The notes under the pieces: model-generated
What the model saw: only the letters and a program-made list of their open reading frames with translations
What the model was told of the DNA's origin: nothing
Databases searched by the model: none
Assembly (NCBI GenBank): GCA_964654765.1
Contig: CAZZKY010000074.1
Span: 1-62,477 of the forward strand
DNA length: 62,477 bases
Reading direction: 5' to 3'
Source: an uncultured bacterium
GTDB taxonomy: Bacteria; Hydrothermota; Hydrothermia; UBA1063
Program-made: the position numbers and the translations under genes
Shown here: positions 22,819 to 42,651 of the stretch, one piece after another
How the letters are laid out: every line of letters begins with the position of its first letter
Position numbering within the stretch: position 1 is the stretch's first letter

Positions 22819-23568
22819 TTAGACTAAAATACGCCAATCGTGAGAGTAAACATTACATTTTTTACCTCTGAGAAATCCAATAAGGGTAAGGCCATATGTT
22901 TGTGCAAGGTCAATGGCAAAGGTTGTGGGAGCGGAATGGGAAACAATTACCGGAATCCTTACTAACACTGCCTTTCTGACTATTTCACTGGATATTCTAC
23001 CGCTTGTAAGTAAAAAGGTGCCTGAAAGTTCTTTCCCCTCAAGCAAGGCTTTGCCTATAACCTTATCAACCGCATTATGCCTTGCTACGTCTTCAGAAAA
23101 ATAAATTATTCCCAACTCGTCACAAATCGCGGATGAATGGAGAGATCCTGCTAATTTGAAATTCACAGATTTCTTATTAAACTCTTCGAAAATTTCGAAA
23201 ATCTTTGATACCCTAAAGTAAACTCTCTCTTCAACAAGAACAGGAAGGTCAGTTAAGCAGAAATTTTCCACTGAAGAACCGCATCCAGAGGTAAAACCCC
23301 AGAAAGCACCTGGTTCAAAGTTAACTTCTCCATCTAAAAAGATTTTGCCATTTTCTTCCCACACTTTAACCTTTGAAAGATCCTTTATCACTCGATTAGT
23401 GTAAAGATAACCTACTGCCCATTCATAAAGCTCTGAAGGGGAAACAGTGTGCCTGAAAAGCACTCTGCCGCTATGGATAACTTCAACAAACTCTTCTTGC
23501 GCAATATAATCATCAACGGGTACAGCCTTTCCACCCGAAACTTTTATTACTTTTCTTATCTCAATCAC
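22819..23568 (-). CDS. fdhD: Formate dehydrogenase accessory sulfurtransferase FdhD
   Basis: FdhD/NarQ-like C-terminus: RHNAVDKVIGKALLEG...LLTSGRISSEIVRKAVLVRIPVIVSHSAPTTFAIDLAQTYGLTLIGFLRG. Only one Cys in the TSGCGSS loop. Confidence 0.85.
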   Translation of the reverse strand: MIEIRKVIKVSGGKAVPVDDYIAQEEFVEVIHSGRVLFRHTVSPSELYEWAVGYLYTNRVIKDLSKVKVWEENGKIFLDGEVNFEPGAFWGFTSGCGSSVENFCLTDLPVLVEERVYFRVSKIFEIFEEFNKKSVNFKLAGSLHSSAICDELGIIYFSEDVARHNAVDKVIGKALLEGKELSGTFLLTSGRISSEIVRKAVLVRIPVIVSHSAPTTFAIDLAQTYGLTLIGFLRGKKCNVYSHDWRILV

Positions 23569-24169
23569 GGAAAAAAGCCCTTAAATCTTCTCTGGTGTTT
23601 ATATTGACAAAACTTTGAAATTCCGGATCAAAAATTCTTATCTTTTCTTCTGGAACCACTTCGAGATTAACACCTGAATAAAATCCTGTAATTTTCAGAC
23701 TGCCCTTCTTAATTTCTTTTTCAATAGCATAAATGCAGGACTTACTGTAAACAGCCAAAAGTGGCTCAAAATACCCCTTTACCAACGGGACAGTTACATC
23801 CGCCATACACTCCTCGGCCTTTGCGAGTAAAAATTCTACTAATCCCCTTTTAATAAAAGGCATGTCACAAGCAATAACCAGGTTAATAAAACTCTTTGAA
23901 GCCTTTAAACCGGCATAAAGGCCGAAAATGGGGGCATATACACGAGAATTATCCAAAATGCAGGTGAAAGGCTCAATACATTGCTCCCGTTCCTTGACTA
24001 CGACCAAAACTTCATCAAAAAGGTCTTTTATTCTTTCAACAGAATAGTCAATTAACCTTTTTTGATTTACCAGGAGGATGGGCTTTGGCTCACCCATCCT
24101 CCTGGACTGGCCACCAGCAAGAATTATAAGGCTTCTATTTTTGCTCTTTTGGTTTTCTAACATACACAA
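23561..24169 (-). CDS. mobA: Molybdenum cofactor guanylyltransferase MobA
   Basis: LIILAGGQSRRMGEPKPIL N-terminal motif, ~200 aa, embedded in the FDH accessory set. Confidence 0.8.
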   Translation of the reverse strand: MCMLENQKSKNRSLIILAGGQSRRMGEPKPILLVNQKRLIDYSVERIKDLFDEVLVVVKEREQCIEPFTCILDNSRVYAPIFGLYAGLKASKSFINLVIACDMPFIKRGLVEFLLAKAEECMADVTVPLVKGYFEPLLAVYSKSCIYAIEKEIKKGSLKITGFYSGVNLEVVPEEKIRIFDPEFQSFVNINTREDLRAFFRD

Positions 24170-25013
24170 GCCAGTAGAGAGTGGCCACTAACCCAGCACC
24201 ACCGAGTATGTTCCCAAGAGTAACGGGGATAAGATTCTTTACGAAGAAACCGTACCAAGTAAGATTTGTGAGGTTAGGCATTCCTGTCTCTTCAATAACC
24301 TTAACGAGGCCTGCATTAACTGCGGCATTAACTACCTCGGGTACGTTCTTCAAGAAAATACCCATAGGAATAAAATACATATTGGCAATCGAGTGTTCAA
24401 AGCCTGATGCGACGAATGCCATAATCGGGAAGAAAATCGCAAATATTTTACCAATTACGTCCCGGGACGCTATAGCCATCCAAACCGCAAGACAAACAAG
24501 CCAGTTACACAAAATACCCCGAGCAAAAGCGGGGAGGAAAGCCAAGCTTGCTTTGGAATTTGCAATGGAAAGGGCGTAGGCACCGACGAGATTTCCGTTC
24601 ATTTTCCAAAGTTCTGTCCAGTACATTAAAACAACCAGAAGAAGGGACCCAATGAGGTTTGCAATATAAACAACACTCCAGTTATAAAGCAGTTTACCAA
24701 CGGAGGCCTTGCCGTCAAGAACGGATAGCATTATGAGGTTATTTCCCGTGAATAATTCGGCACCAGCAATTACTACCAGCATTAGTCCCACGGAAAATAC
24801 CGCTCCTTGCATGAACCTCGCGAAACCAACTCCAAGATACTTTGCCAAATCATGTCCAACCATCGTAGAAAGCTGTGCACCAAATCCGATATATACACCA
24901 GCAAGAATACCGAGTACGAGGAGCTTTGTAAAGCTCGCAGTTACCTTTTTAATACACACATCATTTGTTAATTGATCCGCTACATTAGCCGGGGCTCTGC
25001 ATTCAAACTCCAT
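24135..25013 (-). CDS. focA: Formate/nitrite transporter family channel (FocA-like)
   Basis: Six-TM FNT pattern: GAELFTGN...; FEHSIANMYFIP.... AAGGAGG SD. Confidence 0.85.
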   Translation of the reverse strand: MEFECRAPANVADQLTNDVCIKKVTASFTKLLVLGILAGVYIGFGAQLSTMVGHDLAKYLGVGFARFMQGAVFSVGLMLVVIAGAELFTGNNLIMLSVLDGKASVGKLLYNWSVVYIANLIGSLLLVVLMYWTELWKMNGNLVGAYALSIANSKASLAFLPAFARGILCNWLVCLAVWMAIASRDVIGKIFAIFFPIMAFVASGFEHSIANMYFIPMGIFLKNVPEVVNAAVNAGLVKVIEETGMPNLTNLTWYGFFVKNLIPVTLGNILGGAGLVATLYWLVYVRKPKEQK

Positions 25014-25028
25014 ACTTACACCTCCTTT

Positions 25029-27740
25029 TTAATTTATTTTTTCAATTTTACATGAACAAACCTTTAATTCTGGAATTTTTGCTATGGGATCTAAAGCATC
25101 ATTTGTTAAAATATTTGCTGCTGCCTCACTGAAATGGAATGGAATGAACACAAGTCCGGGGAATACCCTATCACTGGCAACTGCTTTAATCTCAATAGAG
25201 CCTCTGCGAGAAGATACTTTAACCTTTTCGCCATCTTTTATACCAAGCTTTTCCATGTCATCGGGGTTCATCTCCATGTAAGGTTCGTTGCTATACTTGA
25301 TTAGGGAGTTACTTCTTCTCGTCATCGTCGCAGTGTGATAGTGATAAAGCATTCTTCCTGTAGATAATATAAAGGGATAATTTTCATCGGGGAGCTCAGC
25401 AGGTGGAATAAAATCTACGGGATGGAACTTCCCAAGACCGCGAGAGAATTTCTCTTTGTGGAGATACTGAGTTCCAGGATGTTCAGGCGTTGGGCAAGGC
25501 CACTGTAGTTTTTCACCTCTATTAACTCTTTCCGGGGTTATACCACCATAGATTGGTGTTAGTCTGTTGATTTCTCTGAGAATATCTTCCCATGAAGCGT
25601 AATTCATTTCATAACCCATTCTCCTTGCGATTTCCTGTATTATCTCCCAGTCTGCCCTGATTCCGGGAAGTGGTTCTATTGCCTTATTAACTTTCAATAT
25701 GCGCCTTTCTGTATTAGTGAAAGTTCCCTCTTTTTCAGCAAAGGAAGCCACAGGGAGAATAACATCGGCAAACTGGGTGGTTTCTGTCATAAAAATGTCC
25801 TGGCAAACTATAAATTCTACCTTCTCCAGTGCTTCTTTTACGTGAGGGATATTTGGATCCGACATCATTGGATTCTCACCCATCATATAGAAAGCCTTAA
25901 CTTTGCCTTCGGTAGCCGCATACATCATCTCTACAACTGTGAGTCCCGGTTTATCAGGTAGTTTAACGCCCCATGCCTCCTCAAATTTCTTCCTTGCCTG
26001 TTCATCTACAACCTTTTGGTAGCCTGAATACACATCGGGGAGACCTCCCATGTCACAAGCACCCTGGACGTTATTTTGACCTCTCAAAGGATTTACACCC
26101 GTTGATTCCCTACCTATATGACCAGTTATCATTGCCAAGTTTGCAAGAGAGAGAACGTTATCAACCCCGGTTGTGTGCTGGGTAATTCCCATGGAGTAAA
26201 CTATTGACGCCTTCTCAGCTTTGGCATAAAGCCTGGCTGCCTCAATAAGTTTTTCCTTTGGAATTCCAGTAATTTCTTCGACTTTTTCGGGGGTATACTT
26301 CTCAATTATCGGTATGATTGAATCAAAATCTTCGGTCCTGCTTTTAATGAATTCCTCATTGTAAAGCTTCTCTTTCCAAATTATGTGCAGCATCCCATTA
26401 ATCCACGCAACATCAGTACCATTTCTTTGCTGAAGGTGAAGGGTTGCGTATTTTACTAAATCAATCTTTCTCGGATCTACTACAATCAACTTCGCACCGT
26501 GGAAGACTACAGCCCTCTTTATATAGGTGGCTATGACTGGGTGTGTCTCCGTAGTGTTGGAACCCGTAACGAGGATTACATCTGCGTACTCAAGTTCTTT
26601 AATAGAATTAGTCATCGCACCAGAACCAAAGGCTCTCGCAAGTCCTGCTACCGTTGATGCATGGCAGAGCCTCGCACAGTGGTCCACATTGTTAGTCCCA
26701 ATAACTGCTCTCATGAACTTCTGGAATACGTAGTTTTCTTCATTAGTGCATTTTGCAGAGGCAAGGCCTGCAATCGCATCAGGACCGTATTTTTCTTTAA
26801 TTTCGGTCAATTTTTTGGCAACAAAGTCAAGGGCTTCATCCCACTCAACTTCTTCAAATTTACCGTTTTTCTTAATAAGAGGCTTAGTCAATCTATCAGG
26901 TTTATGGACAAAATCAAGCCCAAAGCGGCCCTTAACACAAGTTTTTCCTTCATTTGGAATCTCATTAGCACCAAGAACTTTTACAATTCTGTTATCTTTG
27001 ATCCAAAGCTCAAGCTGGCACCCAACACCGCAGTAAGGGCATGTAGTAACCACTTTCTTGTCCACATCCTTTGCTCTGACTTTAACTCCGTAAGTCTCCC
27101 ACTTTTCTACCAGTGCTCCGGTCGGACACGCCTGGACACACTGACCACAGCCATCACATTCAGATTCGGACCACTTGCCAAGCCCCGCAACCACATAAGA
27201 TTCAATACCTCTTTCAGCAAAGCTCAAAACATTTTTAACCTGAAGCTCAGCACATGCTTTTATACAACGCATACATTTTATACATTTGGAGGAATCGTAA
27301 TACAGTACTGGTGAAGAGGCATCAATCTTTCTCTCGAGCTCCTGCCATATTGAGGCAAACATCCTATTATCTCTTCCAAGATTGTACCTGTAAGCCAGAT
27401 CCTGTAATTCGCAATTACCATCCCTATCACAATTTATACAATCATCATTGTGTTCAGAAAGAATATTATCAAGCAGAATTTTCCTGGTGTTCTCAAGTTC
27501 TTCATCAAAAGCAGTGATCTTCATCCCCTCCTGAACGGTCAAAAGGCAGGAGGGCACCATTCCCGATCTGCCTTCAACCTTAACTATACAGAGTCTGCAT
27601 AACCCACTGGGAGATAGCTCCTTTAAGAAACACAGAGATGGGATATCGATTCCGTTTTCCTTTGCTACCTTTAATACAGGCTCCCCTTCGGGAGCAACTA
27701 TTTCCCTACCATCTATTGTTATTTTAACCAACCTACTCAT
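25029..27740 (-). CDS. fdhA: Formate dehydrogenase catalytic subunit (FdsA/FdhA type) with NuoG-like N-terminal Fe-S module; Cys (not Sec) at the Mo ligand position
   Basis: Start at ATG 27740 (GGGGAGG SD, 6-nt spacer; overlaps the hydF stop). N-terminal [2Fe-2S] (CFLKELSPSGLCRLC), HNDDCINCDRDGNC, two CxxCxxCxxxCP motifs. MopB cluster CPYCGVGCQ. HCARLCHASTVAG and RGQNNVQGACDMG. Confidence 0.9.
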   Translation of the reverse strand: MSRLVKITIDGREIVAPEGEPVLKVAKENGIDIPSLCFLKELSPSGLCRLCIVKVEGRSGMVPSCLLTVQEGMKITAFDEELENTRKILLDNILSEHNDDCINCDRDGNCELQDLAYRYNLGRDNRMFASIWQELERKIDASSPVLYYDSSKCIKCMRCIKACAELQVKNVLSFAERGIESYVVAGLGKWSESECDGCGQCVQACPTGALVEKWETYGVKVRAKDVDKKVVTTCPYCGVGCQLELWIKDNRIVKVLGANEIPNEGKTCVKGRFGLDFVHKPDRLTKPLIKKNGKFEEVEWDEALDFVAKKLTEIKEKYGPDAIAGLASAKCTNEENYVFQKFMRAVIGTNNVDHCARLCHASTVAGLARAFGSGAMTNSIKELEYADVILVTGSNTTETHPVIATYIKRAVVFHGAKLIVVDPRKIDLVKYATLHLQQRNGTDVAWINGMLHIIWKEKLYNEEFIKSRTEDFDSIIPIIEKYTPEKVEEITGIPKEKLIEAARLYAKAEKASIVYSMGITQHTTGVDNVLSLANLAMITGHIGRESTGVNPLRGQNNVQGACDMGGLPDVYSGYQKVVDEQARKKFEEAWGVKLPDKPGLTVVEMMYAATEGKVKAFYMMGENPMMSDPNIPHVKEALEKVEFIVCQDIFMTETTQFADVILPVASFAEKEGTFTNTERRILKVNKAIEPLPGIRADWEIIQEIARRMGYEMNYASWEDILREINRLTPIYGGITPERVNRGEKLQWPCPTPEHPGTQYLHKEKFSRGLGKFHPVDFIPPAELPDENYPFILSTGRMLYHYHTATMTRRSNSLIKYSNEPYMEMNPDDMEKLGIKDGEKVKVSSRRGSIEIKAVASDRVFPGLVFIPFHFSEAAANILTNDALDPIAKIPELKVCSCKIEKIN

Positions 27741-28956
27741 TAAAAACCTCCCCGTTTTTTTCAAAGGGTTTCAAAACCCTCTCCAAAACTCCCTGGACTT
27801 TACAAATAGTTACACCGTAGTTTGTTATTGGTACGCCTCTTCTCAAACACTCCCTTATTTTACTTCTCATTTCAGAAGGATTCAACATGCAAGCACCACA
27901 ATGAATAACAAGCTTATAATCTTCAAGGTTATCAGGAAAATCGCTACCTGAAACCACATCAAATTTTATATCCTTTCCAGTATATTGAGTTATCCAGCGC
28001 GGTATCTTAACCCTTCCGATATCATCAGCCTGTACATGGTGAGAGCAGGCTTCAGAAATTAAAACCTTGTCGCCATCTTTCAGTTTGTCAATCTGTTTAA
28101 GTCCATCCACCAATGTTTTAAGGTCGCCACTCTTGTACCGGGCAAAAAGTATGGAAAAAGTGGTAAGAGAAATGTCCTTCGGTACATCACCAGCAACCTT
28201 CAAAATTACTTGAGAATCAGTAATTACAAGCGCAGGCTTCTTATTGAGCGAGCGCAGGGCTTCTTCCAGTTCCCGCTCCTTAACGATAATACCGATAGCA
28301 TCATTGTCAAGAATATCCCTTAAAACCTGTACTTGTGGGAGAATAAGCCTGCCTTTAGGAGCCGCAAGGTCTATCGGAACGACGAGAATAACTATGTCTC
28401 CTCCCTTTATAAGGTCCCCAACCAGCACCTGCTCCCTTTTCAAATAATCAGGCGCGAGTTTGATAATCAGTTCTTTCAGCTTCAATACACCGTCACCGTT
28501 TTTTGCCGAGACAGAAACAAAGTGTATACTCTTTGAAGTACAAAAATTTATGTCCTCTTGACGTGGTGCACTTAGATCCCTCTTGTTAAAAACGAGAATA
28601 AACGGAATCTTCTTTTCCTCAAGTTCTTTTATAATTTTGAACTCTTCCTCACCCAATCCTCTTTCATCTGTAACGAGAAGAGCTAAATCGGCTTTCATTA
28701 AAACTTTCCTGGTAGCTTTAATCCTCATTTCACCCAATTCGCCGACATCGTCGAGCCCAGCAGTATCGTAGAAAGTAACAGGACCCAAGGGCAGAAGCTC
28801 ATAATGTTTATCCACAGGATCAGTTGTAGTACCTGGAATATCCGAAACAAGGGCAATCTCCTGACCCACCAAGGCATTTATCAAACTTGATTTACCAACA
28901 TTTCTTCTGCCCAGTAATACGATTATCAATCTCTCTCCCTTAGGAGCCTTTTGCAT
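27733..28956 (-). CDS. hydF: [FeFe]-hydrogenase H-cluster maturation GTPase HydF
   Basis: Start at ATG 28956 (AGGAGG SD). G1 GRRNVGKSSLINAL, DIPGTTTDPV, DTAGLDD, NKRD. C-terminal cluster motif EACSHH...IHCGACM. Confidence 0.9.
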   Translation of the reverse strand: MQKAPKGERLIIVLLGRRNVGKSSLINALVGQEIALVSDIPGTTTDPVDKHYELLPLGPVTFYDTAGLDDVGELGEMRIKATRKVLMKADLALLVTDERGLGEEEFKIIKELEEKKIPFILVFNKRDLSAPRQEDINFCTSKSIHFVSVSAKNGDGVLKLKELIIKLAPDYLKREQVLVGDLIKGGDIVILVVPIDLAAPKGRLILPQVQVLRDILDNDAIGIIVKERELEEALRSLNKKPALVITDSQVILKVAGDVPKDISLTTFSILFARYKSGDLKTLVDGLKQIDKLKDGDKVLISEACSHHVQADDIGRVKIPRWITQYTGKDIKFDVVSGSDFPDNLEDYKLVIHCGACMLNPSEMRSKIRECLRRGVPITNYGVTICKVQGVLERVLKPFEKNGEVFNE

Positions 28957-30001
28957 AAAACCTCCTGGGTGAATAGCCCTTAGAAATCTCAACCATTAAA
29001 TTGCATGATTCCACAATCTGTCTCAAGTAATTGACCTCCTCTATTGTACAGGCACATCTAACGTTCTTGCCAGGATAGATATTGTATAATACCCTTACAT
29101 CTGAGGGCGTAATAGAGGGCATTAATACATTGGCACCTACCAAAAGGCCGGCAGCTCGCCAATCTAAGAATGTCAAACCCAACAAATCTTTTAAGGACTC
29201 TGAAAACTCACTGTAATCGTTAATTGAGGCAAGGGCACTGGTAGATGGGATATTCGCATATGGATTCAATATTCTCAATATAGCTATGCATCTCAATGTA
29301 ATGAGTGGGCTTCCAGCTGGATAGTTTCCAAGTGGGGTATTGGGGTGTGGAATAAACGGGCCAACAGCGATCATCTCCAACTCAAGTTCTGTCAACCTCA
29401 TTAAATCCATAGCTAAGCTTTCAATCGACTGCCCTGGTAGTCCCACAATAATTCCAGAACCCGCCTCATAGCCGAGTTCTTTAAGCCAGTAAATCATTTT
29501 AATTCTTTCTTCCAAACTCCTTCCTGGACGGTATTTCCTATAAAGCTCCGGGTCAAATGTCTCAACTTTTATTAGATACCTCTCCGCACCTGCTTCTCTC
29601 CATTCTACAAGATCTTCGTAACTTCGCTCTCCCAAGGACAAAGTTACTACAACATCAACACGCGAGAGTATCTCTCTAATTAACTTGGAGATCTTGTCCT
29701 TTTTATAAAAGTAATCGTTTCCAGACTGTAAAACTATTGTTCTAAGACCTTCAAAATACCCTATTTCAGCAACCTCTAAAATCTTTTCAAAGGGAATTCT
29801 GTATCTTTCTAACTTCCTATTCTCACATCTCAATCCACAGTATAAGCAATTATCATGGCAGTAATTAGAAAACTCGATAACACCCCTCATGAACACAGAT
29901 TTGCCGAATACTCTCTCCTTTATTCTGCCTGCTTCAGAAAAGAGCCATTTATCGTCTTTTCCAGACAACAATTCCTTAACCTCTTTAAGACTTAAACTCA
30001 T
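28940..30001 (-). CDS. hydE: [FeFe]-hydrogenase H-cluster radical SAM maturase HydE
   Basis: Radical SAM CHDNCLYCGLR, BioB-like fold, located between aspA and hydF. GGAGGAGG SD. Confidence 0.85.
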   Translation of the reverse strand: MSLSLKEVKELLSGKDDKWLFSEAGRIKERVFGKSVFMRGVIEFSNYCHDNCLYCGLRCENRKLERYRIPFEKILEVAEIGYFEGLRTIVLQSGNDYFYKKDKISKLIREILSRVDVVVTLSLGERSYEDLVEWREAGAERYLIKVETFDPELYRKYRPGRSLEERIKMIYWLKELGYEAGSGIIVGLPGQSIESLAMDLMRLTELELEMIAVGPFIPHPNTPLGNYPAGSPLITLRCIAILRILNPYANIPSTSALASINDYSEFSESLKDLLGLTFLDWRAAGLLVGANVLMPSITPSDVRVLYNIYPGKNVRCACTIEEVNYLRQIVESCNLMVEISKGYSPRRFYAKGS

Positions 30002-31397: not shown

Positions 31398-31653
31398 ACA
31401 ACATCTCCCTAAGTTTCGTTCTGATCAATTCCCAATCCTTTCTTAATAAGGTTTCATCCTCGCAAAAAAGTGCAAAATTATTGTCTATTTCAAGGAAACA
31501 GGGAGGAGAAGTTAGTTCGGGCTCAAACCCAATATAAAAGGACCAGCGCCTGCCCAACCTCTTTGAGATCCAAATACCCCCAGTCTGATACTTCCCTTTG
31601 ATCTCCTTTAAAAAGTCAAGCATGACATCAGAAGAAAAGGTCTCTCTCTCCAT
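31381..31653 (-). CDS. Unknown 90-aa protein embedded between hydG and aspA
   Basis: Fills the only gap in the maturase string. The ATG is preceded by AAGAGG inside the hydG 3' end. Overlaps hydG by 26 nt and aspA by 17 nt. No motif recognised. Confidence 0.45.
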   Translation of the reverse strand: MERETFSSDVMLDFLKEIKGKYQTGGIWISKRLGRRWSFYIGFEPELTSPPCFLEIDNNFALFCEDETLLRKDWELIRTKLREMLYESRT

Positions 31654-33445: not shown

Positions 33446-33694
33446 TTATAGACTGCTAATTCCCACTCTTACTTCCGGAACTTCCTTTTTTATAGTTTCC
33501 ACAAGTTCTAACGCCTTTTCCTCTGCTCCTAAAAATATCACTGATATGATAAAAAATCTCGCACATTTAGATGGTAGTCCAATTCTTCCATAAATGTAGT
33601 CCGAGTAGCGATGAAGAATGTCCTGTATCTTTAAAGCATAAGCGTTGTCCGTCATTGCAATTGTTATGGTGTTTATTCCCCATTTGTCACTCAT
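33446..33694 (-). CDS. TM1266-like small ACT-like protein, divergent copy 2
   Basis: 82 aa with the same layout: ITIAMTDN...IQDILHRYSDYIYGRIGLPS...ISVIFLGAEEKALELVETIKKEVPEVRV. AAGGAGG SD. Confidence 0.45.
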   Translation of the reverse strand: MSDKWGINTITIAMTDNAYALKIQDILHRYSDYIYGRIGLPSKCARFFIISVIFLGAEEKALELVETIKKEVPEVRVGISSL

Positions 33695-35500: not shown

Positions 35501-37108
35501 TTACCTCCTACATTTTTCACACTTATAATTTTTATCAAGGTGTGCTAAGAAATCTTCTCTGAAGTTTTCAATTGCACTTTTTACTGGCATAACCAGAGAC
35601 TGCCCAAGTGGGCAGAAGGATGATTTAAACATCGCCTCGGAGAGGCTGATCATTTTGTCTAAGTCTTCTTCCTTTGCCTCTCCTTCCCTGACTTTATTAA
35701 TTAGAGCATAAAGTTCGTAAGTGCCGATCCTACAGGGGGTGCATTGACCGCACGATTCATGTTTGAAGAACCTTATTATGGAAAAGAGCATATCCACCAT
35801 ACAGGTATCTTCGTTCATAACGAGAATCGCACCAGAACCAAGAACCGCACTATACTGCTTTAGGTTATCAAAGTCCATTCTCACGGATAGTAAACTCTCG
35901 GGTAGAAAAACACCCGCTGCACCACCCACAAGCGCAGCCTTAAATCTCTTGCCATCCTTTATTCCACCACCGTAATTGAAGATTATGTCTCTTAGGGGAG
36001 TTCCCATCTCCACTTCTATAAGCCCAGGGTAAACTACATGTCCAAGAATTGTGAAGACTTTGGTCCCCGGGCATTTTTCTGTACCCATTGTCCTGTACCA
36101 TTCGGCACCGTTTTTGATTATGGACGGAACATTAGCAAGAGTCTCTACATTGTTAACTACCGTAGGTTTCATCCATAAACCATGAGTAACCGGATAAGGA
36201 GGCTTGTTACGCGGTTGACCCCTCTTTCCTTCAAGAGATTCAATGAGGGCCGTTTCCTCACCACATACGTAAGCACCAGCACCTTTCTTTATTTCCAAGT
36301 CGAAATTCACATTGGTCCCAAGAATATTTTTACCAAGGATGTTATAACTGTATGCATCCTGAATGGCTTTCTGCAATCTCCTTATGGAAAGTTCGTACTC
36401 TCCTCTTACATATATGTACCCCTTCTCAGCACCAATCGCATAACCGGCAATAATCATTCCCTCAATCAACTTGTGAGGATCGCCTTCAAGGATCAACCTA
36501 TCCTTAAATGTTCCGGGTTCGCCTTCATCAGCATTACAAATTACAAACTTCTCGTCCCCTGGAGCCTTCTTAGCGGATTCCCACTTAATTCCCGTTGGAA
36601 AGCCCGCTCCTCCTCTACCCCTCAAACCAGATTTCTTAATCTCCTCAATTACATCTTCTGGCTTCATCGAAGAGAGAACCTTTTCTAACGCTTCATAACC
36701 ACCAGCGGCGATATAATCGTCTATGTTTTCAGGATCTATAATGCCCACGTTTTCGAGAACAACCCTTTTCTGTTCCCTTGTGAGGCCAACTTTTTCTTTT
36801 TTCACAAATCTTGCAGGTACTTCACCAAGAAGTAAATCCTTAACTGGTCTTCCCTTCAAGAAGTGTTCCTCAACAATTCTCGGTATATCAGTGACCTTCA
36901 AATTAGCATAGTAAATACCTTCAGGGTAAACTACCATCAGAATGCCTTTTCCCGTAATCCCAATCGATCCAGTCTCTAAAACTTTAATCTCCTCTTCCAG
37001 ATTCCTCTTTCTCAGTTCTTCAAGAAGGGCCTTTTGAAACTCCATTACACCCGCAAGAACCGTATCAGGGTCCACAGGCAGGAGAACATGCATTCTTGCT
37101 ATCTTCAT
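35501..37108 (-). CDS. NuoF-like FMN/NAD(P)H diaphorase subunit, paralogue 2 (Cys-less N-terminal Trx-like domain)
   Basis: [13 protein letters not shown] (FMN), NADEGEPGTFKDR, ESCGQCTPCR...C (N3 cluster). The first ~190 aa contain no Cys. Ends ...KCEKCRR with no C-terminal 2x[4Fe-4S] domain. Confidence 0.85.
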   Translation of the reverse strand: MKIARMHVLLPVDPDTVLAGVMEFQKALLEELRKRNLEEEIKVLETGSIGITGKGILMVVYPEGIYYANLKVTDIPRIVEEHFLKGRPVKDLLLGEVPARFVKKEKVGLTREQKRVVLENVGIIDPENIDDYIAAGGYEALEKVLSSMKPEDVIEEIKKSGLRGRGGAGFPTGIKWESAKKAPGDEKFVICNADEGEPGTFKDRLILEGDPHKLIEGMIIAGYAIGAEKGYIYVRGEYELSIRRLQKAIQDAYSYNILGKNILGTNVNFDLEIKKGAGAYVCGEETALIESLEGKRGQPRNKPPYPVTHGLWMKPTVVNNVETLANVPSIIKNGAEWYRTMGTEKCPGTKVFTILGHVVYPGLIEVEMGTPLRDIIFNYGGGIKDGKRFKAALVGGAAGVFLPESLLSVRMDFDNLKQYSAVLGSGAILVMNEDTCMVDMLFSIIRFFKHESCGQCTPCRIGTYELYALINKVREGEAKEEDLDKMISLSEAMFKSSFCPLGQSLVMPVKSAIENFREDFLAHLDKNYKCEKCRR

Positions 37109-37566
37109 TTCGACTCCCTCCTTTTCTCCTCGATTATTTGTTTGACCTTTTCGGGAGTTAGATTGCCATAAACTTCCTCATTGATCATCATGGCAGGTGC
37201 AACACCGCACACACCTATGCAGGAAGTCAGCTCTAAGGTAAAGAGTTCGTCTTTTGTAGTTTCTCCGATCCCAATCCCGAGGGTTTTAACAAGCTCCACA
37301 ATCACGTCGCTGGAACCCATAAGGTGACAAGTGGGTGACTCACATACCCTGATTATGTATTTTCCCCGGGGTTTCAAGCTGAACATACTGTAAAAAGTAG
37401 CAACTCCATGAACATAGCTGTAAGGGAGGTTTAACCAGTTCGCAACTGCTCTTAAATCCTCCTCCGTCAGATAATGCCGGGGATTATTGTCCTGGATATC
37501 ATGCAGAATATAAAGGAGGTTGTCCTTTGACTTTCCGTATTTGTTCAAAATTTCTTCCCTTGTCAT
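37105..37566 (-). CDS. NuoE-like [2Fe-2S] subunit, paralogue 2
   Basis: RVCESPTCHLMGS ... SCIGVCGVAPAMMINEE (CxxxxC...CxxxC). ATGA overlap with NuoF-like 2. Confidence 0.85.
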   Translation of the reverse strand: MTREEILNKYGKSKDNLLYILHDIQDNNPRHYLTEEDLRAVANWLNLPYSYVHGVATFYSMFSLKPRGKYIIRVCESPTCHLMGSSDVIVELVKTLGIGIGETTKDELFTLELTSCIGVCGVAPAMMINEEVYGNLTPEKVKQIIEEKRRESK

Positions 37567-37578: not shown

Positions 37579-39243
37579 TTAAATGATGCCTTTTAACTTT
37601 TCTTCCAATGAAACTTCCTCTTCTTTTACCTCAAACTGGCAAACACCTGCCCTGCATTTTTTATCCTTGATGTGCTCAATATACTCATCCCGGAAATAGC
37701 GCAATGTTGAAAGGACAGGATTAGGCGCAGATTGACCAAGTCCACAGAGAGAGGTTCTCCTTATTTCCTCCCCAAGTTTTTCAAGGGTTTCAAGGTCTTC
37801 CATCTTACCATGACCCTTAGTTATCCTATCAAGAATATCGTAAAGGTGTTTCAAGCCAATCCGACAAGGTACACACTGACCACAGGACTCTTCCACTGTA
37901 AAATCTAAGAAGAACTTAGCGAGATTTACCATACAGGTATCTTCATCCAAAACAATTACACCACCGGAGCCCATTATCGTACCAAGTTTTTTAAGCGACT
38001 CATAATCAATTGGAGTATCAGCATATTCTGCAGGTACACACCCACCTGATGGTCCCCCTATCTGAACCGCTTTAAACTTTTTGTTATCAGGAATACCACC
38101 ACCTATATCAAAAACGAGTTCTCTTATGGTAATTCCCATTGGAACCTCAACAAGCCCTGTATTATTAACCTTTCCGGAGAGGGCAAATACCTTGGTGCCT
38201 TTGCTGGTTTCCGTTCCAATGCTGGCAAACCACTTAGATCCATTAAGGATTATATGCCTTACATTTGCGAAAGTTTCCACGTTATTGATTAAAGTGGGTT
38301 TACCCCACAAACCCTTTTGTGCTGGGAACGGAGGTTTTGGCCTTGGCTGACCTCGTTTCCCTTCAATTGATGCAATTAGTGCTGTCTCTTCTCCACAGAC
38401 AAAGGCGCCAGCACCAATCCTTATCTCTATATCAAAACTAAAGGAAGTTTCAAAAATATTGTTTCCGAGAAGTCCGTATTTCCTCGCCTGCTGAATGGCT
38501 TTTTCCAACCTCTTTATTGCAAGGGGATATTCTGCTCTCACATAAACATAACCCTGTTTCGCTCCAATAGCATAGGCAGCAATTGCCATACCTTCAATTA
38601 CAGAATGGGGATCACCTTCAAGAATTGCTCTATCCATAAAGGCACCTGGGTCACCCTCATCACCATTGCAAACAACAAACTTCTCGTCACCAGCGGATTC
38701 CCTTGTCACTTTCCACTTTATTCCTGTTGGGAAACCGGCACCGCCTCTCCCCCTTAAGCCAGAATTAATCATTTCCTCAATAACCTGTTCCGGTGTCATT
38801 TCAGTCAGAACCTTTGCGAGAGCTTCATATCCACCAACGGCAATGTATTCCTCAATATTTTCTGGATCAATCTTACCACAGTTAGAAAGTACTATCTTAA
38901 GCTGTTTTTCGAAGAAGGGAATCTGCTTTTTCTCTTCAACAATCCTTCTTGCTTCAGGTGTAGTCCACTGCAAACGTTTTACCGGTCTTCCCTTAATGAC
39001 GTGTTCCTTAACGATCTCTTCAACATCGCTCTCTTTGAGCTTTATGTAAAAAACACCATCGGGGTAAACGAGCATAACGGGACCGAGCTCGCATGGTCCC
39101 ATGCAGCCTGTTTCCACTATCGCAACTTCATCTTCGAGATTGTGTTCTTTCAACACCGCCTGTAATTTATTCTTGATAGTGGTGCTATCATTAGATATAC
39201 AGGCGGCACCAGAACAAACAAGGATATCAAGCCTCTTTGGCAT
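37579..39243 (-). CDS. NuoF-like FMN/NAD(P)H diaphorase subunit, paralogue 1 (intact N-terminal Trx-like [2Fe-2S] domain)
   Basis: N-terminus [11 protein letters not shown]...[12 protein letters not shown] (4 Cys). [36 protein letters not shown]. Ends shortly after KCRAGVC, with no 2x[4Fe-4S] ferredoxin domain. Confidence 0.9.
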
Positions 39244-39609
39244 TTATGCCTCCTTGACCTCTATTACGTATTCCGTTACAGGATTTCCATTGACAATATG
39301 TTCGGCCACAATCCTTCTCGCTGCATCAGGTGTAAGATTTCCGTAAACCACAATTGGTTTACCCTCTTCCCAGACCTCTGCTATTGGCTCATGGGAAGAA
39401 AGTCCCTTTTCCCCGCTCTGCGTCACAATAACATCCTGCAAGTTTCTTTTCTCAACCTCATCAATGAATGCTTTCAAAACTTCTCTGGCTCCAGCAGCTA
39501 TGCCGCTGGTTCCCATCCCTACTACAATTTTTACTCTCGCCTTACCTTCCCTTAACTTGAGCTCTTTTTCAGCTTTTTCTCTAATTTTTCTAAGGTCTTC
39601 CAACTTCAT
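39244..39609 (-). CDS. Thioredoxin-like ferredoxin-fold protein lacking all cysteines (HydD-like position)
   Basis: 121 aa with zero Cys. GMGTSGIAAGA and VTQSGEKGLSSHEP sit where homologous [2Fe-2S] proteins have, as I recall, GTCG and TGC..C. Lies between the GHKL ATPase and NuoF-like 1. Confidence 0.6.
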   Translation of the reverse strand: MKLEDLRKIREKAEKELKLREGKARVKIVVGMGTSGIAAGAREVLKAFIDEVEKRNLQDVIVTQSGEKGLSSHEPIAEVWEEGKPIVVYGNLTPDAARRIVAEHIVNGNPVTEYVIEVKEA

Positions 39610-40157
39610 GATACTACCTCCATTGCTTTCAAATTTTCGTCAATGTATTCTTTTAAAAATCTAATTACTTCAGGATGGTTTATGGGCACATCCTGAAGTT
39701 CTTTTTTAATTTCCCGTGTGTCCAGTACAAAGGACACGCCATCCTTATAGATTTCAAATAAGAAATCAATTTCAGGTTTTCCAACAACAAGGGCGATAAT
39801 TGTATCTCTCATGTTACCGATGGGGGGCAAGTCAATGTGGGACATTTTAAATTTTGCTTTTATTAACGTTCCCTTCCCAGGCGTACTTATAATTTCAAAA
39901 CTGCCGTCACAGTGCTCCGCAATTTGTTTGAACAGTGGAATTCCAAGTCCCACTTTTTTATAGGATTTAGTTGTGTAAAATGGGTCCTGGACTTTTTTAA
40001 TTTCTTCTGCTGTCATACCTTTACCGTCATCTTCGATCTCTATGGTCAATGTGTCAAGGGAAAAGTTTTGTTCTAATCTCACCCTTACAAGTTTGGCACC
40101 TGCACTTATCGAATTTTGGACGATATCCATTATATGCATGGAGAGCTCAGCCAGCAA
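39606..40157 (-). CDS. Stand-alone GHKL (histidine-kinase-like) ATPase without a DHp/phosphoacceptor domain
   Basis: N-box DIVQNSISAGA, G1 EDDGKGM, G2 GLGIPL, GKGT. Inserted between NuoE-like 1 and the Trx-like protein. Start uncertain (TTG 40157 or ATG 40139). Confidence 0.7.
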   Translation of the reverse strand: MLAELSMHIMDIVQNSISAGAKLVRVRLEQNFSLDTLTIEIEDDGKGMTAEEIKKVQDPFYTTKSYKKVGLGIPLFKQIAEHCDGSFEIISTPGKGTLIKAKFKMSHIDLPPIGNMRDTIIALVVGKPEIDFLFEIYKDGVSFVLDTREIKKELQDVPINHPEVIRFLKEYIDENLKAMEVVS

Positions 40158-40674
40158 CCTCGCTCTGCTCCTCTTTTCCTTCCGTCTCTTTCTGTCTCCT
40201 ATATTCTCTTATAACTTCTTTTACCTTTTCTGGTGTTAGTTTGCCAAAAACATCCTCATTGATCATTATCACGGGCGCAAGCCCACAAGCACCAAAACAC
40301 CTCGCTGTGGAAAGGGTAAAGAATTTATCTTTTGTGGTTTCTCCGACTTTTATCCCAAGTTCTTCCGAAATAGCCTTCACAATAGCCTCTGCACCCTTTA
40401 CGTGGCACGCAGTACCCATGCACACATTAATCACGTGCTTAGCGACAGGTTCTGTCCGGAAAAAGTTGTAGAACGTAACAACGCCGTAAACCTGCGAAAG
40501 AGGAACATTCAATTCCTTTGCTACAAAATACTGAACTTCCGGTGGAAGGTAACCGAAGATTTCCTGGGCCCTATGTAAAACCTGAATCAAGGGACCAGGC
40601 TTTCTCTTGTACCTTGCAATATCCCTTTTCAACATCTGATATTGTGGGTTATCCTCAGGTATGTGAAGTTTCAT
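40147..40674 (-). CDS. NuoE-like [2Fe-2S] subunit, paralogue 1
   Basis: NVCMGTACHVKGA ... RCFGACGLAPVIMINED. ATGA overlap with the upstream PHP gene. Confidence 0.85.
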   Translation of the reverse strand: MKLHIPEDNPQYQMLKRDIARYKRKPGPLIQVLHRAQEIFGYLPPEVQYFVAKELNVPLSQVYGVVTFYNFFRTEPVAKHVINVCMGTACHVKGAEAIVKAISEELGIKVGETTKDKFFTLSTARCFGACGLAPVIMINEDVFGKLTPEKVKEVIREYRRQKETEGKEEQSEVAG

Positions 40675-41423
40675 AAAATCCTCCCTTTTTCACCATAAAC
40701 TTCATAACTTCTACCATCTAACCCCTTCAAAGCCTTTCTTACCTCTTCTAAAGTGGGCTTTGCAATATTAAACACCACATACCCTCTTCCTATCTCTTCA
40801 GGGTAGTGGGCATCAGAGAATGTTACCACTGGATAGTTTGAAATACCTGGAATTTCTCTATCATTTAGTCTGGAAGGTTCTGTGTTATAAATAACCTCTA
40901 CACCGTCAATGTTAAGATTTTCAGGTATAAATCCCAGTTGTGAAACGATACTAAAATGGGGAGAGTTGACATGAGAAAGAATAGAGATACCCCCGTAGTG
41001 AGCAATCAGAGACAGCACCTCATCCAGATTCAAAGTAATAGAATTCACAAGAAGTTTCTCTTCAAACCTGATTATCTCCTCATCCTCATCTACAACTACC
41101 TGATCCCCAAAATATTCAGGATTATTAGGAATATCAGGCAGGTGTTCATAAATGATTTCTCCAAACCCCTTTAAATTTTCAATAGAATCAAAAAGGGCAA
41201 GTAGATGTACTTCTTCAGAGGTCTGGACTTCCATCCCGTAAAGTGCCGAAATAAGGTTTCTCTCAACAAATTTAGAAATCTGTATCGAATTTTCATAAGA
41301 ATTGTGGTCTGTAACGGCGATAAAATTTATCCCCTTTTCCAAAGCAAATTCAACGATTTTCTTGGGAGACATCTCTAAGCTCCCGCAAGGGGAGAGAGTT
41401 GAGTGAATATGAAAATCTGCCAT
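40671..41423 (-). CDS. PHP-domain metal-dependent phosphoesterase
   Basis: Start at ATG 41423 (MADFHIHSTLSPCG...). FIAVTDHNS, later SHVNSPH and FSDAHYPEE. Confidence 0.75.
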   Translation of the reverse strand: MADFHIHSTLSPCGSLEMSPKKIVEFALEKGINFIAVTDHNSYENSIQISKFVERNLISALYGMEVQTSEEVHLLALFDSIENLKGFGEIIYEHLPDIPNNPEYFGDQVVVDEDEEIIRFEEKLLVNSITLNLDEVLSLIAHYGGISILSHVNSPHFSIVSQLGFIPENLNIDGVEVIYNTEPSRLNDREIPGISNYPVVTFSDAHYPEEIGRGYVVFNIAKPTLEEVRKALKGLDGRSYEVYGEKGRIL

Positions 41424-41427
41424 AAAT

Positions 41428-41781
41428 CTACCGAATTTCACCGTATTTAAGTAAATTGTAAAGTTTTCCACAAAATTCAAAGGTATTCATTTCAGTTCCA
41501 AGTAAAACTACACCTTCCTCAGTCGCTTTTTTTATCGTAGCATCGTCAGGAATTATACCCTTTGTTATAACAATTCCAGCCCCATCCTTTAACTTCGCAA
41601 CGGCAACAACATTGAGGTGTCTTTGAATGGTAACCCAAAGCTCATCCTTAGAAAGTCCAGCAATCACATCAGAGAGGAGATCTGAGGCATATCCCCAGGA
41701 CACCTCAATCATCTCCCAGCCTTCCACTTCGGGGTTGAATATTTTCAAACCCATTACTTTAACAACTTCACTTAGCTTCAT
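41428..41781 (-). CDS. DRTGG-domain protein, copy 2
   Basis: YASDLLSDVIAGL...VTIQRHLNVVAVAKL...GIVITKGIIPDDATIKKATEEGVVLLGT. Confidence 0.65.
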   Translation of the reverse strand: MKLSEVVKVMGLKIFNPEVEGWEMIEVSWGYASDLLSDVIAGLSKDELWVTIQRHLNVVAVAKLKDGAGIVITKGIIPDDATIKKATEEGVVLLGTEMNTFEFCGKLYNLLKYGEIR

Positions 41782-42214
41782 TTTCTTTTCTCCTGTAAAT
41801 TATTGCGTGGATCTTTGTCCCTACGCCCGGTGCAGATTCCACTTCAAAGACATCAGAGTTCTGCTTCATATTGGGAAATCCCATACCTGCACCGAAGCCG
41901 TAATCCTGTGCCCAAGGGGGCGCAGTGGAATAACCAGGTTGCATAGCCTTTTCAAGGTCCTCTATCCCAGGGCCATTATCTTCAGCAAAAATCTCTACTG
42001 AATTACTGTTGGCTTCAACTTTGAGTTTTCCTCCAACAGAATAAAGGATCATATTCATTTCCGCCTCAAAACATATTATACCTACCCTCTTTACAACCTC
42101 TTCTTCAATACCGTATTTCTGAAGTTCGCTTTTTACGTGCGAGGAGGCAGCACCGGCATTTGCGAGATCCATCGCCTTTATTCTATAGACCAATCTGACC
42201 TTTTCGTTACCCAT
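41768..42214 (-). CDS. RsbW/SpoIIAB-like anti-sigma-type Ser/Thr kinase (GHKL ATPase)
   Basis: 148 aa. N-box CFEAEMNMILY, G1 EDNGPGIED, G2 GFGAGMGFPNM, APGVGT. Confidence 0.7.
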   Translation of the reverse strand: MGNEKVRLVYRIKAMDLANAGAASSHVKSELQKYGIEEEVVKRVGIICFEAEMNMILYSVGGKLKVEANSNSVEIFAEDNGPGIEDLEKAMQPGYSTAPPWAQDYGFGAGMGFPNMKQNSDVFEVESAPGVGTKIHAIIYRRKENEAK

Positions 42215-42610
42215 TTAGTCAACATTTAAACAAGTGTTTGTATCTTCACCACCCTGAAGTATTTTAATTTTACAGGGTTTAACTCCATTCGTATACAAGA
42301 TTCCACAGGTTTCAAAGACTGTTTTTTGAGTTAATACTACAGGTATGCCGGAAAGTTTCGCTGCTTCGACAAGCGCTTTTGAAGGCTGTTTACCCCTAGC
42401 AATTATAATGAGTGGTATATCCAAAACTTCCGCAACCCTTATTACCTGGGGACCAGTTATTCCAGTAATTAAACAGGCTTTTTCTTCAGTCAATGCAAGA
42501 ACATCAGAAAGGAGGTCAGCGGCGAAACCCCTTTCCACTTCCACATCCAACTTATCTTGGCCTGAAATAATTTTGCCATCTATTTTTTCAACAATCTCTC
42601 GTATCTTCAT
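42215..42610 (-). CDS. DRTGG-domain protein, copy 1 (first gene of the supercluster)
   Basis: FAADLLSDVLALTEEKACLITGITGPQVIRVAEVLDIPLIIIARGKQP...AAKLSGIPVVLT. Confidence 0.7.
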   Translation of the reverse strand: MKIREIVEKIDGKIISGQDKLDVEVERGFAADLLSDVLALTEEKACLITGITGPQVIRVAEVLDIPLIIIARGKQPSKALVEAAKLSGIPVVLTQKTVFETCGILYTNGVKPCKIKILQGGEDTNTCLNVD

Positions 42611-42622
42611 AGAACTATCTTA

Positions 42623-42651
42623 ATTATACAACTTTGTGAAAATGCGTTCAA
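42623..42651 (-). promoter_or_regulatory. Consensus sigma70-type promoter of the hydrogenase/FDH supercluster
   Basis: Minus strand: TTGAAC (42651..42646), 17 nt, TATAAT (42628..42623), 12 nt, ATG (42610). No SD. Confidence 0.5.

Follow-up and report, generated by a model that had tools for sequence, protein, structure and literature searches.

Does a gene cluster that encodes one [FeFe]-hydrogenase, one formate dehydrogenase and two pairs of NuoE- and NuoF-type proteins specify two enzymes, each with a flavoprotein pair of its own, or one redox system built on a common module? The question is raised by 22 consecutive minus-strand genes that run unbroken over 19,792 nt, from position 42610 down to 22819, in contig CAZZKY010000074.1 of assembly GCA_964654765.1. 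The whole stretch analysed, 62,477 nt long, is referred to as the window. It comes from a thermophile of the WOR-3 lineage in cellulolytic enrichments (77°C) of Great Boiling Spring, and the closest genome records of the window are metagenome-assembled genomes of WOR-3 and Hydrothermota. A first-pass annotation of the same DNA had described the minus-strand run correctly, but had counted 24 open reading frames in it; 22 were found, the names in its own list also number 22, and no gap fits another gene. The two flavoprotein pairs appear to behave as one inherited unit, which serves either the hydrogenase or the formate dehydrogenase catalytic subunit.

Gene identities were obtained from Pfam and NCBIfam profile matches, with NCBIfam equivalog cut-offs applied; HydG, HydE, HydF, FdhA and FdhD scored above these cut-offs. 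Each gene name of the first-pass annotation was borne out and the cofactor motifs were all intact. The genes of the flavoprotein module and the two catalytic subunits, in the order of transcription, are as follows.

40147..40674, minus strand: NuoE1, [2Fe-2S] subunit of the NuoE/HydC/BfuC type, 175 aa (Pfam PF01257, E 2e-55; Cys 85, 90, 126, 130)
39244..39609, minus strand: orf121, HydD/HndB-like protein of thioredoxin fold, 121 aa, no Cys (no Pfam match; PDB sequence matches)
37579..39243, minus strand: NuoF1, flavoprotein of the HydB/BfuB type, 554 aa (Pfam; alignment to 7t2r_B)
37105..37566, minus strand: NuoE2, [2Fe-2S] subunit, 153 aa (Pfam PF01257, E 9e-51; Cys 75, 80, 116, 120)
35501..37108, minus strand: NuoF2, stripped BfuB paralogue, 535 aa (Pfam; PDB matches; orthologue alignment)
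33706..35496, minus strand: HydA, [FeFe]-hydrogenase catalytic subunit, 596 aa from the ATG at 35496 (Pfam; NCBIfam group A6)
25029..27740, minus strand: FdhA, FdsA-type formate dehydrogenase with Mo/W-bis-pyranopterin guanine dinucleotide (bisPGD) cofactor, 903 aa (TIGR01591, 925 bits; NuoG-like N-terminal module)

The cluster thus holds two NuoE and two NuoF genes, the exactly two NuoEF pairs of the first-pass annotation. The same annotation had noted a common NuoG-like N-terminal module in HydA and FdhA, and this was confirmed. Over 236 aa the modules share 41% identity. Their Cys carry identical position numbers in the [2Fe-2S] site and in the [4Fe-4S] cluster with a His ligand, whose HxxxCxxCxxxxxC site is kept in both proteins, and the Cys of the two ferredoxin-type [4Fe-4S] clusters are in both spaced as CxxCxxCxxxC. 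Both proteins have the layout of a BfuA subunit, NuoG-like clusters followed by a catalytic domain, which carries the H-cluster in HydA and Mo/W-bisPGD in FdhA. Docking of a NuoG-type subunit on NuoEF-type flavoproteins is established for complex I, FdsABG and HydABC.

HydA scored 859 bits against the NCBIfam model 'NADH-dependent [FeFe] hydrogenase, group A6' (cut-off 765), and its closest solved structures are the HydA1 subunits 8a6t_A (628 bits; molecule name 'electron bifurcating hydrogenase subunit HydA1') and 7q4v_A (611 bits). The H-cluster motifs P1 to P3 read TSCSPGW, MPCTAKK and EIMACPGGCVGGGGQ, and HydE, HydF and HydG give the cluster a maturation system of its own. The Ser in P1 occupies the position of the proton-relay Cys of most model enzymes. 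The idea that it marks an inactive or sensory hydrogenase was rejected in view of the same motif in A. woodii HydA1 (7q4v_A) and in 35 of 60 related HydA proteins. An apparent loss of P2 in the population variants L082 and L084 was merely due to ambiguous bases. FdhA was aligned over its full length with the alpha subunits of NAD-dependent formate dehydrogenases (7vw6_A and 6tg9_A, 762-766 bits), as is characteristic of an FdsABG alpha subunit. Its active site contains Cys359-His360 (RLC359H) and Arg553 (R553GQNNVQG), and no selenocysteine is present.

The cluster was compared with 80 genome loci around HydG relatives, with the contexts of FdhA and NuoF2 homologues, and with 80 metagenome NuoF loci; individual loci are given as L numbers. 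The metagenome scan, performed with a NuoF2 alignment, picked generic NuoF patterns and mostly single-pair clusters, and is a background sample and not a census; tandem double-module or NuoF2-type loci among the 80 matches listed were L092, L093, L094 and L097. The order NuoE1-(ATPase-b)-HydD-like-NuoF1-NuoE2-NuoF2, in which ATPase-b is a GHKL ATPase listed further below, was observed in at least 15 distinct loci from several phyla. Classified at the level of the cluster, this double module is followed by HydA only in at least six loci (L002 of Hydrothermota; L003, L004 and L010 of Aminicenantes and others; L092; L094), by FdhA only in at least four (L085 of WOR-3; L089; L091; L174), by both in at least three (the window, L087 and L088, among the matches listed in WOR-3 only) and by neither in at least two (L097; L175 of Caldisericia). 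A synteny search had been proposed in the first-pass annotation; the combined hydrogenase and formate dehydrogenase arrangement does recur, in L087 and L088, and so does the overlap of hydF and fdhA that had been reported. In the window the hydF stop (27733) and the fdhA ATG (27740) share 8 nt (ATGAGTAG), in L087 1 nt and in L088 4 nt.

The WOR-3 loci reveal how the two catalytic genes relate to the module. A block of about 10 kb, hydA to hydF, lies exactly between nuoF2 and fdhA, and FdhA occupies that nuoF2-adjacent place when hydA is absent. L085 shares its upstream neighbours with the window and its downstream neighbours with L087 (MgtE; LplA/Pyr_redox/RtcB), and the genomes therefore differ by the presence or absence of this block. 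In the closest genome record, L001 (WOR-3 UBA1063), the genes hydA to hydF are succeeded by focA-mobA, and neither fdhA nor fdhD is present there; no fdhA remnant was found in its 225-nt hydF-focA gap (8378-8601).

The 'exactly two NuoEF pairs' of the first-pass annotation could be taken to mean one pair per enzyme. This reading is not supported, as both pairs precede a single catalytic subunit, in the same order, in at least ten loci, and as both are under purifying selection in L085, where FdhA is the only catalytic subunit of the cluster. All five module genes of L085 gave a proportion of nonsynonymous differences (pN) of 0.06-0.09, against a saturated proportion of synonymous differences (pS) of 0.71-0.90, which indicates strong purifying selection. 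Selection is expressed as pN and pS, synonymous sites being saturated (pS about 0.8), and no dN/dS ratio is given for most genes. Across loci, the identities of NuoF1 and NuoF2 to their counterparts in the window co-vary with r = 0.94. From the recurrence with either partner, the selection in L085 and this correlation it follows that the two pairs appear to behave as one inherited unit serving either catalytic subunit.

The reading that we regard as moderately probable, on the strength of sequence comparison, is a soluble redox system of the HydABC/Bfu family, in which one conserved two-flavoprotein module accepts a NuoG-type catalytic subunit, HydA or FdhA. The module would consist of NuoE1, the HydD-like protein and NuoF1 together with NuoE2 and NuoF2, and the NuoG-type catalytic subunit would be the swapping part. 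Both flavoprotein pairs would then belong to the same enzyme system, instead of being split one per enzyme, and HydA and FdhA would share or compete for the module, either by alternate use or in a mixed dimer. Oxidation of NAD(H) could in this way be directed towards either H2 or formate, the two could be converted into each other, and FocA could export or import formate. The label 'pyridine-nucleotide-linked', used in the first-pass annotation, is suggested by the intact flavin mononucleotide (FMN)/NADH motifs and by homology. One catalytic gene per two flavoprotein pairs would fit a dimer of catalytic subunits bearing two NADH modules that differ. The two HydABC protomers of T. maritima connect through HydA, with their His-ligated [4Fe-4S] clusters 8.8 Å apart (PMC9499530). 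A bolder version, which we consider rather unlikely, is that the double module represents an undescribed and widespread HydABC/Bfu subclass with a NuoG-type dimer carrying two NADH modules, and that in WOR-3 a HydA-FdhA heterodimer, formed via the His-ligated [4Fe-4S] clusters, works as a soluble, NAD-buffered formate-hydrogen lyase/CO2 reductase regulated by kinase and phosphatase without HydS.

Several observations weigh against a module shared by HydA and FdhA. Adjacency and co-inheritance are no proof of a common complex. The terms 'HydA only' and 'FdhA only', and likewise the lack of fdhA in L001, refer to the gene cluster and not to the whole genome. In L173 (Syntrophorhabdaceae, 8599-18682), the genes for ATPase, HydD-like protein, NuoE2, NuoF2 and HydA are directly followed by those for NuoE1, a NuoF1 with GltD-like domain and a second HydA, each pair having its own HydA. 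A NuoE2-NuoF2 pair stands alone in L172 (Dictyoglomus, 9543-11632), with no NuoG-type gene nearby. Judging from these two loci, the two pairs can probably work separately. Further, NuoF1 keeps its N-terminal [2Fe-2S] cluster and Zn/'B2' ligands and hence is not of a clean non-bifurcating type, and the module may be built for three-substrate chemistry, given the ferredoxin or GltD-like domains on NuoF1 orthologues elsewhere.

The cofactor sites of the module are relevant to its electron carriers. The motifs CNxDEGxPG, ESCGQCxPCR and CxLGQ were identified in both NuoF proteins, in which the FMN/NADH site and the [4Fe-4S] cluster B1 are intact as in Bfu enzymes, and each NuoE has the four Cys of the [2Fe-2S] cluster C1 of BfuC. 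The N-terminal [2Fe-2S] cluster (B5) and the Cys3-His site of BfuB were found in NuoF1 only, the former as Cys 10, 15, 47 and 51, and the latter as C437, H524, C530 and C535, with Thr475. For this Cys3-His site of HydB/BfuB there are models with a fifth cluster ('B2') and models with zinc. NuoF1 aligns with residues 5-541 of the 597 residues of 7t2r_B and ends where the ferredoxin domain starts, 14 residues beyond its position 540, the last one aligned (to residue 541 of 7t2r_B). Neither NuoF has the C-terminal 2x[4Fe-4S] domain (B3/B4) of BfuB; no Fer4 Pfam match and no CxxCxxCxxxCP motif was found in NuoF1 or NuoF2. NuoF2, 51% identical to NuoF1, has a thioredoxin-like N-terminal domain without Cys, and the Zn/'B2' Cys and His residues are not conserved across its orthologues. 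NuoE2 and NuoE1 are 44% identical. The PDB sequence matches of orf121 are the N-terminal [2Fe-2S] domain of NfnB/HydB and thioredoxin-like [2Fe-2S] ferredoxins. With its Cys-less thioredoxin fold it resembles HydD of A. woodii, which has been described as cofactor-less (PMC6288185).

All characterised bifurcating [FeFe]-hydrogenases are reported to have the B3/B4 domain, which their non-bifurcating NADH-dependent counterparts lack (PMC9499530; PMC9304861; PMC11406978; PMC7311640). Because NuoF1 is without B3/B4 and NuoF2 without every extra cluster, no ferredoxin branch is expected in the WOR-3 form, and the enzyme is more likely NADH-dependent and non-bifurcating, which would be plausible at about 77°C and low H2. 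NuoF1 occurs in three C-terminal forms. It ends without any further domain (554 aa) in WOR-3, Hydrothermota and L094; it carries a ferredoxin domain (596 aa) in L089 (6117-7907) and L092; and in L003 (2368-5445), L004, L010, L091 (4789-7863), L174 (4855-7929) and L175 (6488-9535) it is fused to a GltD-like Fer4_20 and Pyr_redox_2 domain for NAD(P)H and flavin adenine dinucleotide (FAD), giving about 1,020 aa. The last form corresponds to 'sub-type I' of PMC11406978.

The alternative that survives best, itself unlikely, is a complex that is still electron-bifurcating or confurcating, in which the second pair or an unlinked ferredoxin/flavodoxin site replaces the B3/B4 branch. NuoF1 is nearest to bifurcating-type HydB (802 bits to 7t2r_B, 781 bits to 7q4v_B), the [2Fe-2S] and Zn/'B2' ligands that it retains are absent from non-bifurcating HydB homologues (PMC9304861; PMC9499530), and sister lineages keep the ferredoxin or GltD domain on NuoF1. 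Moreover, a complete Rnf operon (15734-20249) adjoins the FdhA-type double-module cluster of L091, which may point to a connection with the ferredoxin pool there. Against this, every characterised bifurcating member has B3/B4, the cluster contains no 2x[4Fe-4S] ferredoxin gene, and the same FMN/NADH-site motifs, including CGEETAL, occur in both NuoF proteins and give no hint of different nucleotides.

A second alternative, distinctly unlikely, restricts the hydrogenase or formate dehydrogenase to NuoE2, NuoF2 and the adjacent NuoG-type subunit, as a non-bifurcating NADH-dependent trimer. NuoE1, the HydD-like protein and NuoF1 would form a separate enzyme without a NuoG-type subunit or a redox sensor, transhydrogenase-like where fused to GltD in other phyla. 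In double loci the catalytic gene indeed always follows nuoF2 and never nuoF1 (among the matches listed), and the pair occurs by itself in Dictyoglomus and with HydD-like protein and HydA in L173. Rare Bfu enzymes without a BfuA subunit have been described (Schut et al., PMC9304861), and the fusions of NuoF1 with GltD bear an extra nucleotide site of their own. However, the genes for NuoE1, HydD-like protein and NuoF1 were never seen without nuoE2-nuoF2 directly downstream in the double-module clade (among the matches listed), and the two NuoF proteins co-vary as stated above. In the usual single-pair clusters the same three genes directly precede HydA or FdhA, so they appear to be built for NuoG-type docking, and the WOR-3 NuoF1, without ferredoxin or GltD domain, has no obvious second substrate.

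Two heterotrimers with a private diaphorase each, merely co-transcribed (for example NuoE1-NuoF1 with the HydD-like protein and HydA as a HydABCD-like enzyme, and NuoE2-NuoF2 with FdhA as an FdsABG-like one), would suit the two pairs and two catalytic subunits, the FdsB domain layout of NuoF2 with its full-length alignment to 6vw7_B, and the usual NuoE1-ATPase-HydD-NuoF1 gene set ahead of hydA, but are improbable in view of the at least ten loci from several phyla with both pairs before a single catalytic subunit, of the 'hydrogenase' genes for NuoE1, HydD-like protein and NuoF1 in the FdhA-only L085 (89-91% identical to those of the window, pN about 0.06-0.08, pS saturated), and of hydA adjoining nuoF2 in exactly the spot that fdhA takes when hydA is absent.

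The C-terminal 18-20 residues of HydA (33706-33765, minus strand) form an extra tail, ...KRCDQTGCTLEAVTEKHVGHH, in the double-module clade, which reads ...LTHKH in Aminicenantes and was not found in the other HydA proteins of the sample. Metal binding or docking could be its role.

Upstream of the flavoprotein genes, and once between them, the cluster contains the following genes of regulatory type.

42215..42610, minus strand: DRTGG-domain protein 1, 131 aa (Pfam PF07085, E 6e-8)
41768..42214, minus strand: RsbW/SpoIIAB-like ATPase of the GHKL serine-kinase type, 148 aa (Pfam HATPase_c and HATPase_c_2; NCBIfam anti-sigma F factor, 53 bits, below cut-off)
41428..41781, minus strand: DRTGG-domain protein 2, 117 aa (weak Pfam matches; 33% identical to DRTGG-domain protein 1)
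40671..41423, minus strand: PHP-family phosphoesterase, 250 aa from the ATG at 41423 (Pfam PHP and PHP_C)
39606..40157, minus strand: GHKL ATPase-b, 183 aa, between nuoE1 and the hydD-like gene (Pfam HATPase_c, E 7e-17)

The first DRTGG gene has the same position in L002, L085 and L094 and in the usual single-pair HydABC-type clusters, and ATPase-b is placed as in those clusters. In the single-pair clusters (L096, L101, L107, L113 and others), the gene for the RsbW-like ATPase and the second DRTGG gene are separated by one for a HydS-like sensory hydrogenase, about 450 aa long. No HydS-like gene was found in the window at this place (41428-42214, minus strand), nor in any other double-module locus save L175 (Caldisericia). 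The DRTGG, ATPase and PHP genes stay beside the flavoprotein module in FdhA-only clusters too. They would represent the usual HydABC regulatory set, here without HydS, that goes with the module whichever catalytic subunit is present.

The remaining genes serve, or accompany, maturation of the two catalytic subunits and formate transport.

33446..33694, minus strand: TM1266-like small protein a, 82 aa (Pfam PF21699; TIGR03959 below cut-off)
33124..33384, minus strand: TM1266-like small protein b, 86 aa (Pfam PF21699, E 3e-18; TIGR03959, 71 bits, above cut-off)
31628..33112, minus strand: HydG, radical-SAM H-cluster maturase (TIGR03955, 482 bits, cut-off 312)
31381..31653, minus strand: orf90, conserved small protein, overlapping the end of hydG by 26 nt (orthologues in the same position)
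29985..31397, minus strand: AspA, protein of the aspartate ammonia-lyase family, inside the maturase block (NF008909, 659 bits, cut-off 510)
28940..30001, minus strand: HydE, radical-SAM maturase (TIGR03956, 292 bits, cut-off 255)
27733..28956, minus strand: HydF, maturation GTPase/scaffold, 407 aa from the ATG at 28956 (TIGR03918, 571 bits), its stop overlapping the fdhA start by 8 nt
24135..25013, minus strand: FocA-type formate/nitrite channel, the formate channel of the first-pass annotation (Pfam PF01226, E 2e-83; 'fnt' subfamily model above cut-off)
23561..24163, minus strand: MobA-like molybdenum cofactor guanylyltransferase (Pfam PF12804; NCBIfam MobA models below cut-offs)
22819..23568, minus strand: FdhD sulfurtransferase, last gene of the cluster (TIGR00129, 179 bits, cut-off 141)

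orf90 matched no Pfam or NCBIfam family. Orthologues in the same position were found in at least six phylum-level groups (for example L035 11478-11732, L006 3299-3559 and L055 4731-4988); they occur in WOR-3, Hydrothermota, Aminicenantes, Thermotogota (the cultured Athalassotoga saccharophila), Thermodesulfobacterium, Syntrophales and one Archaeoglobaceae metagenome-assembled genome, with the common motif W[IV][AS]E..G[RK]RWS[YF]..G. An AlphaFold2 prediction (pLDDT 86) gave a helix, four strands and a helix, and a fold search returned nothing significant, the likeness to MglB/roadblock proteins being non-significant (TM 0.60-0.65). orf90 may be an undescribed accessory of H-cluster maturation. 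aspA adjoins hydEFG in many unrelated loci (for example L005, L018, L023, L038 and L052) and is missing in the close relatives L001, L087 and L088; it is therefore a frequent yet dispensable companion of the maturases. Directly downstream of the cluster (15568-22699, minus strand) are two large proteins of unknown function, of about 498 and about 1,876 aa, the larger with weak CUB and Por_Secre_tail (type IX secretion) matches. Next come an M23 peptidase and a Tricorn/Omp85-like protein, in an order that L088 shares.

The genes are tightly packed. The first-pass annotation had given overlaps of up to 35 nt and gaps of at most 61 nt; the 61-nt gap stands, and the largest overlap is 29 nt with refined starts, or 35 nt only if MobA starts at the TTG at 24169. 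Intergenic spacing thus ranges from -29 to +61 nt, and 11 of the 21 junctions overlap. Identical FdhA was found on 13 contigs (including JGI 3300000085, JGI 3300000106 and two ENA assemblies), and the gene order was the same in all four inspected loci of identical FdhA, which come from four samples (two JGI, two ENA); a chimeric assembly or other assembly artefact was ruled out on these grounds. One promoter-like box lies ahead of the cluster.

42623..42651, minus strand: candidate promoter-like box TTGAAC-17-TATAAT, its -10 box ending 12 nt before the first ATG, without a Shine-Dalgarno sequence

The box is located where the first-pass annotation had placed its one promoter. The further claim, that internal promoters and terminators are lacking, is compatible with the sequence, and the scans decide neither way. 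Promoter-like matches in the region numbered 27 against 24.3 +/- 5.7 in shuffled sequence, and 22 against 19.3 +/- 5.4; terminator-like matches numbered 14 against 10.1, and 11 against 9.3. As these counts are at the shuffle expectation, they neither support nor refute a single transcript. The 119-nt gap after fdhD holds a better box, TTGACT-17-TATAAT (22700-22735, minus strand), ahead of the next gene; it ends 7 nt before the ATG of that gene, also without a Shine-Dalgarno sequence. Since the two sigma-70-like boxes end 12 and 7 nt from an ATG that has no Shine-Dalgarno sequence, the first genes behind them are suggested to be leaderless or near-leaderless. Clear GGAGG-type sites were observed at internal genes of the cluster. 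Rfam and tRNA scans of the whole window gave no match, so there is no molybdenum cofactor or other riboswitch to explain regulation.

The mechanism by which a single FMN lets HydABC/Bfu enzymes split electron pairs is still debated, with respect to a B2 cluster or a zinc site and to the roles of B3/B4 and B5. The loci described here form a natural graded series on one scaffold, in which the main flavoprotein has a ferredoxin domain, a GltD-type NAD(P)H/FAD domain or neither, and is combined with a hydrogenase, a formate dehydrogenase or both, in every case beside a second, minimal flavoprotein pair. Such a series could show which parts bifurcation needs and what is gained from a second NADH site. 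Should the module indeed be shared by HydA and FdhA, or the two combine in a mixed dimer, a third route for coupling H2 to formate/CO2 would stand beside the hydrogen-dependent CO2 reductase (HDCR) and Hyt-Fdh, and its thermophile origin would make it interesting for storing hydrogen and reducing CO2. Metabolic models would be refined as well, for WOR-3, Aminicenantes, Caldisericia and other uncultured fermenters, in which these genes are now annotated 'complex I subunit NuoF'.

The closest known systems are the bifurcating HydABC(D)/Bfu enzymes (T. maritima, A. woodii, T. kivui, and NiFe-HydABCSL of A. mobile). The locus is like these in HydA, NuoF1, NuoE1 and the cofactor-less HydD-like protein, in the upstream DRTGG, ATPase and PHP genes, and in the ATPase between hydC and hydD. 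It differs in a NuoF1 without B3/B4, in the diverged NuoE2-NuoF2 pair between nuoF1 and hydA, in the lack of HydS, and in the formate dehydrogenase within the cluster. With the FdsABG(D) formate dehydrogenases (R. capsulatus 6tg9, C. necator 6vw7 and M. extorquens FoDH1 7vw6) it shares the full length of FdhA, the FdsB layout of NuoF2, and FdhD, the equivalent of FdsC. By sequence score, however, NuoF2 lies closer to HydB-type proteins (594 bits) than to FdsB (404 bits), and the locus adds a second, HydB-type pair with a HydD-like protein, regulatory genes and FocA. NuoE2 and NuoF2 have the FdsG/FdsB layout, with a cluster-free thioredoxin-like N-terminal domain ahead of the NuoF core in NuoF2, yet in FdhA-only clusters the second pair always accompanies them. 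No Pfam or NCBIfam match to an FdsD-type protein was found in the cluster.

In HDCR (7qv7), HycB-type polyferredoxin connectors link HydA2 and FdhF into filaments, and there is no NuoEF, NuoG-like module or nucleotide coupling. The locus resembles HDCR in joining an [FeFe]-hydrogenase and a formate dehydrogenase, and HDCR subunits are matched by HydA in its H-cluster domain and by FdhA in its pterin domain, but there is no HycB-like 4x[4Fe-4S] protein among its 22 products, and it has two NuoEF pairs. The NADH-dependent hydrogenases S. wolfei Hyd1ABC and S. aciditrophicus HydAB have one flavoprotein of about 400 aa without a thioredoxin-like N-terminal domain (PMC7311640). They and the locus are alike in flavoproteins without B3/B4 and in the predicted transfer from NADH to H2 without ferredoxin. 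The locus is unlike them in having two flavoproteins, both with a thioredoxin-like N-terminal domain, and in the [2Fe-2S] and Zn/'B2' sites of NuoF1; of the S. wolfei pattern, with one NuoE, NuoF and HydA and no B2 to B5, only NuoF2 agrees, in its clusters.

In Clostridium autoethanogenum, the Hyt-Fdh complex (termed 'FdhFeFe-Bfu' or Type 2 by Schut et al.) also combines a hydrogenase and a formate dehydrogenase with a NuoEF-type core, interconverts H2 + CO2 and formate and couples this to pyridine nucleotide (PMC9304861). It has one HytB/C pair and a full bifurcating core, and the H-cluster of HytA and the pterin of FdhA are on extra subunits that feed a reduced BfuA, HytD (PMC9304861). In the locus, by contrast, HydA and FdhA are both of the full BfuA type, the pairs are two, the BfuB proteins are incomplete, and genes like those for HytD or the ferredoxin-like HytE subunits are lacking. 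The first-pass annotation was therefore right that the gene set differs both from HDCR, by the lack of HycB-type subunits, and from Hyt-Fdh, by the latter's catalytic sites on extra subunits around a single pair (PMC9304861).

Literature searches for a doubled NuoEF/BfuBC module, for DRTGG proteins with hydrogenase and for hydrogenase or formate dehydrogenase clusters of WOR-3 and Aminicenantes yielded no description, which is absence of evidence only; a text search of PMC9304861 for duplication terms found nothing on a double-module form, and a WOR-3 survey mentions only group A [FeFe]-hydrogenases and formate dehydrogenases (PMC12542636). The predicted Type 1 Fdh-Bfu enzymes, such as that of Carboxydothermus hydrogenoformans, have a single complete BfuBC core (PMC9304861). 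Like these, the locus has in FdhA a BfuA with a pterin domain, which directly follows the flavoprotein genes in L085, L089, L103, L106 and L160. As judged from its genes, the locus is a Type 1 FeFe-Bfu and a Type 1 Fdh-Bfu in one, with a flavoprotein core that is doubled and in part stripped.

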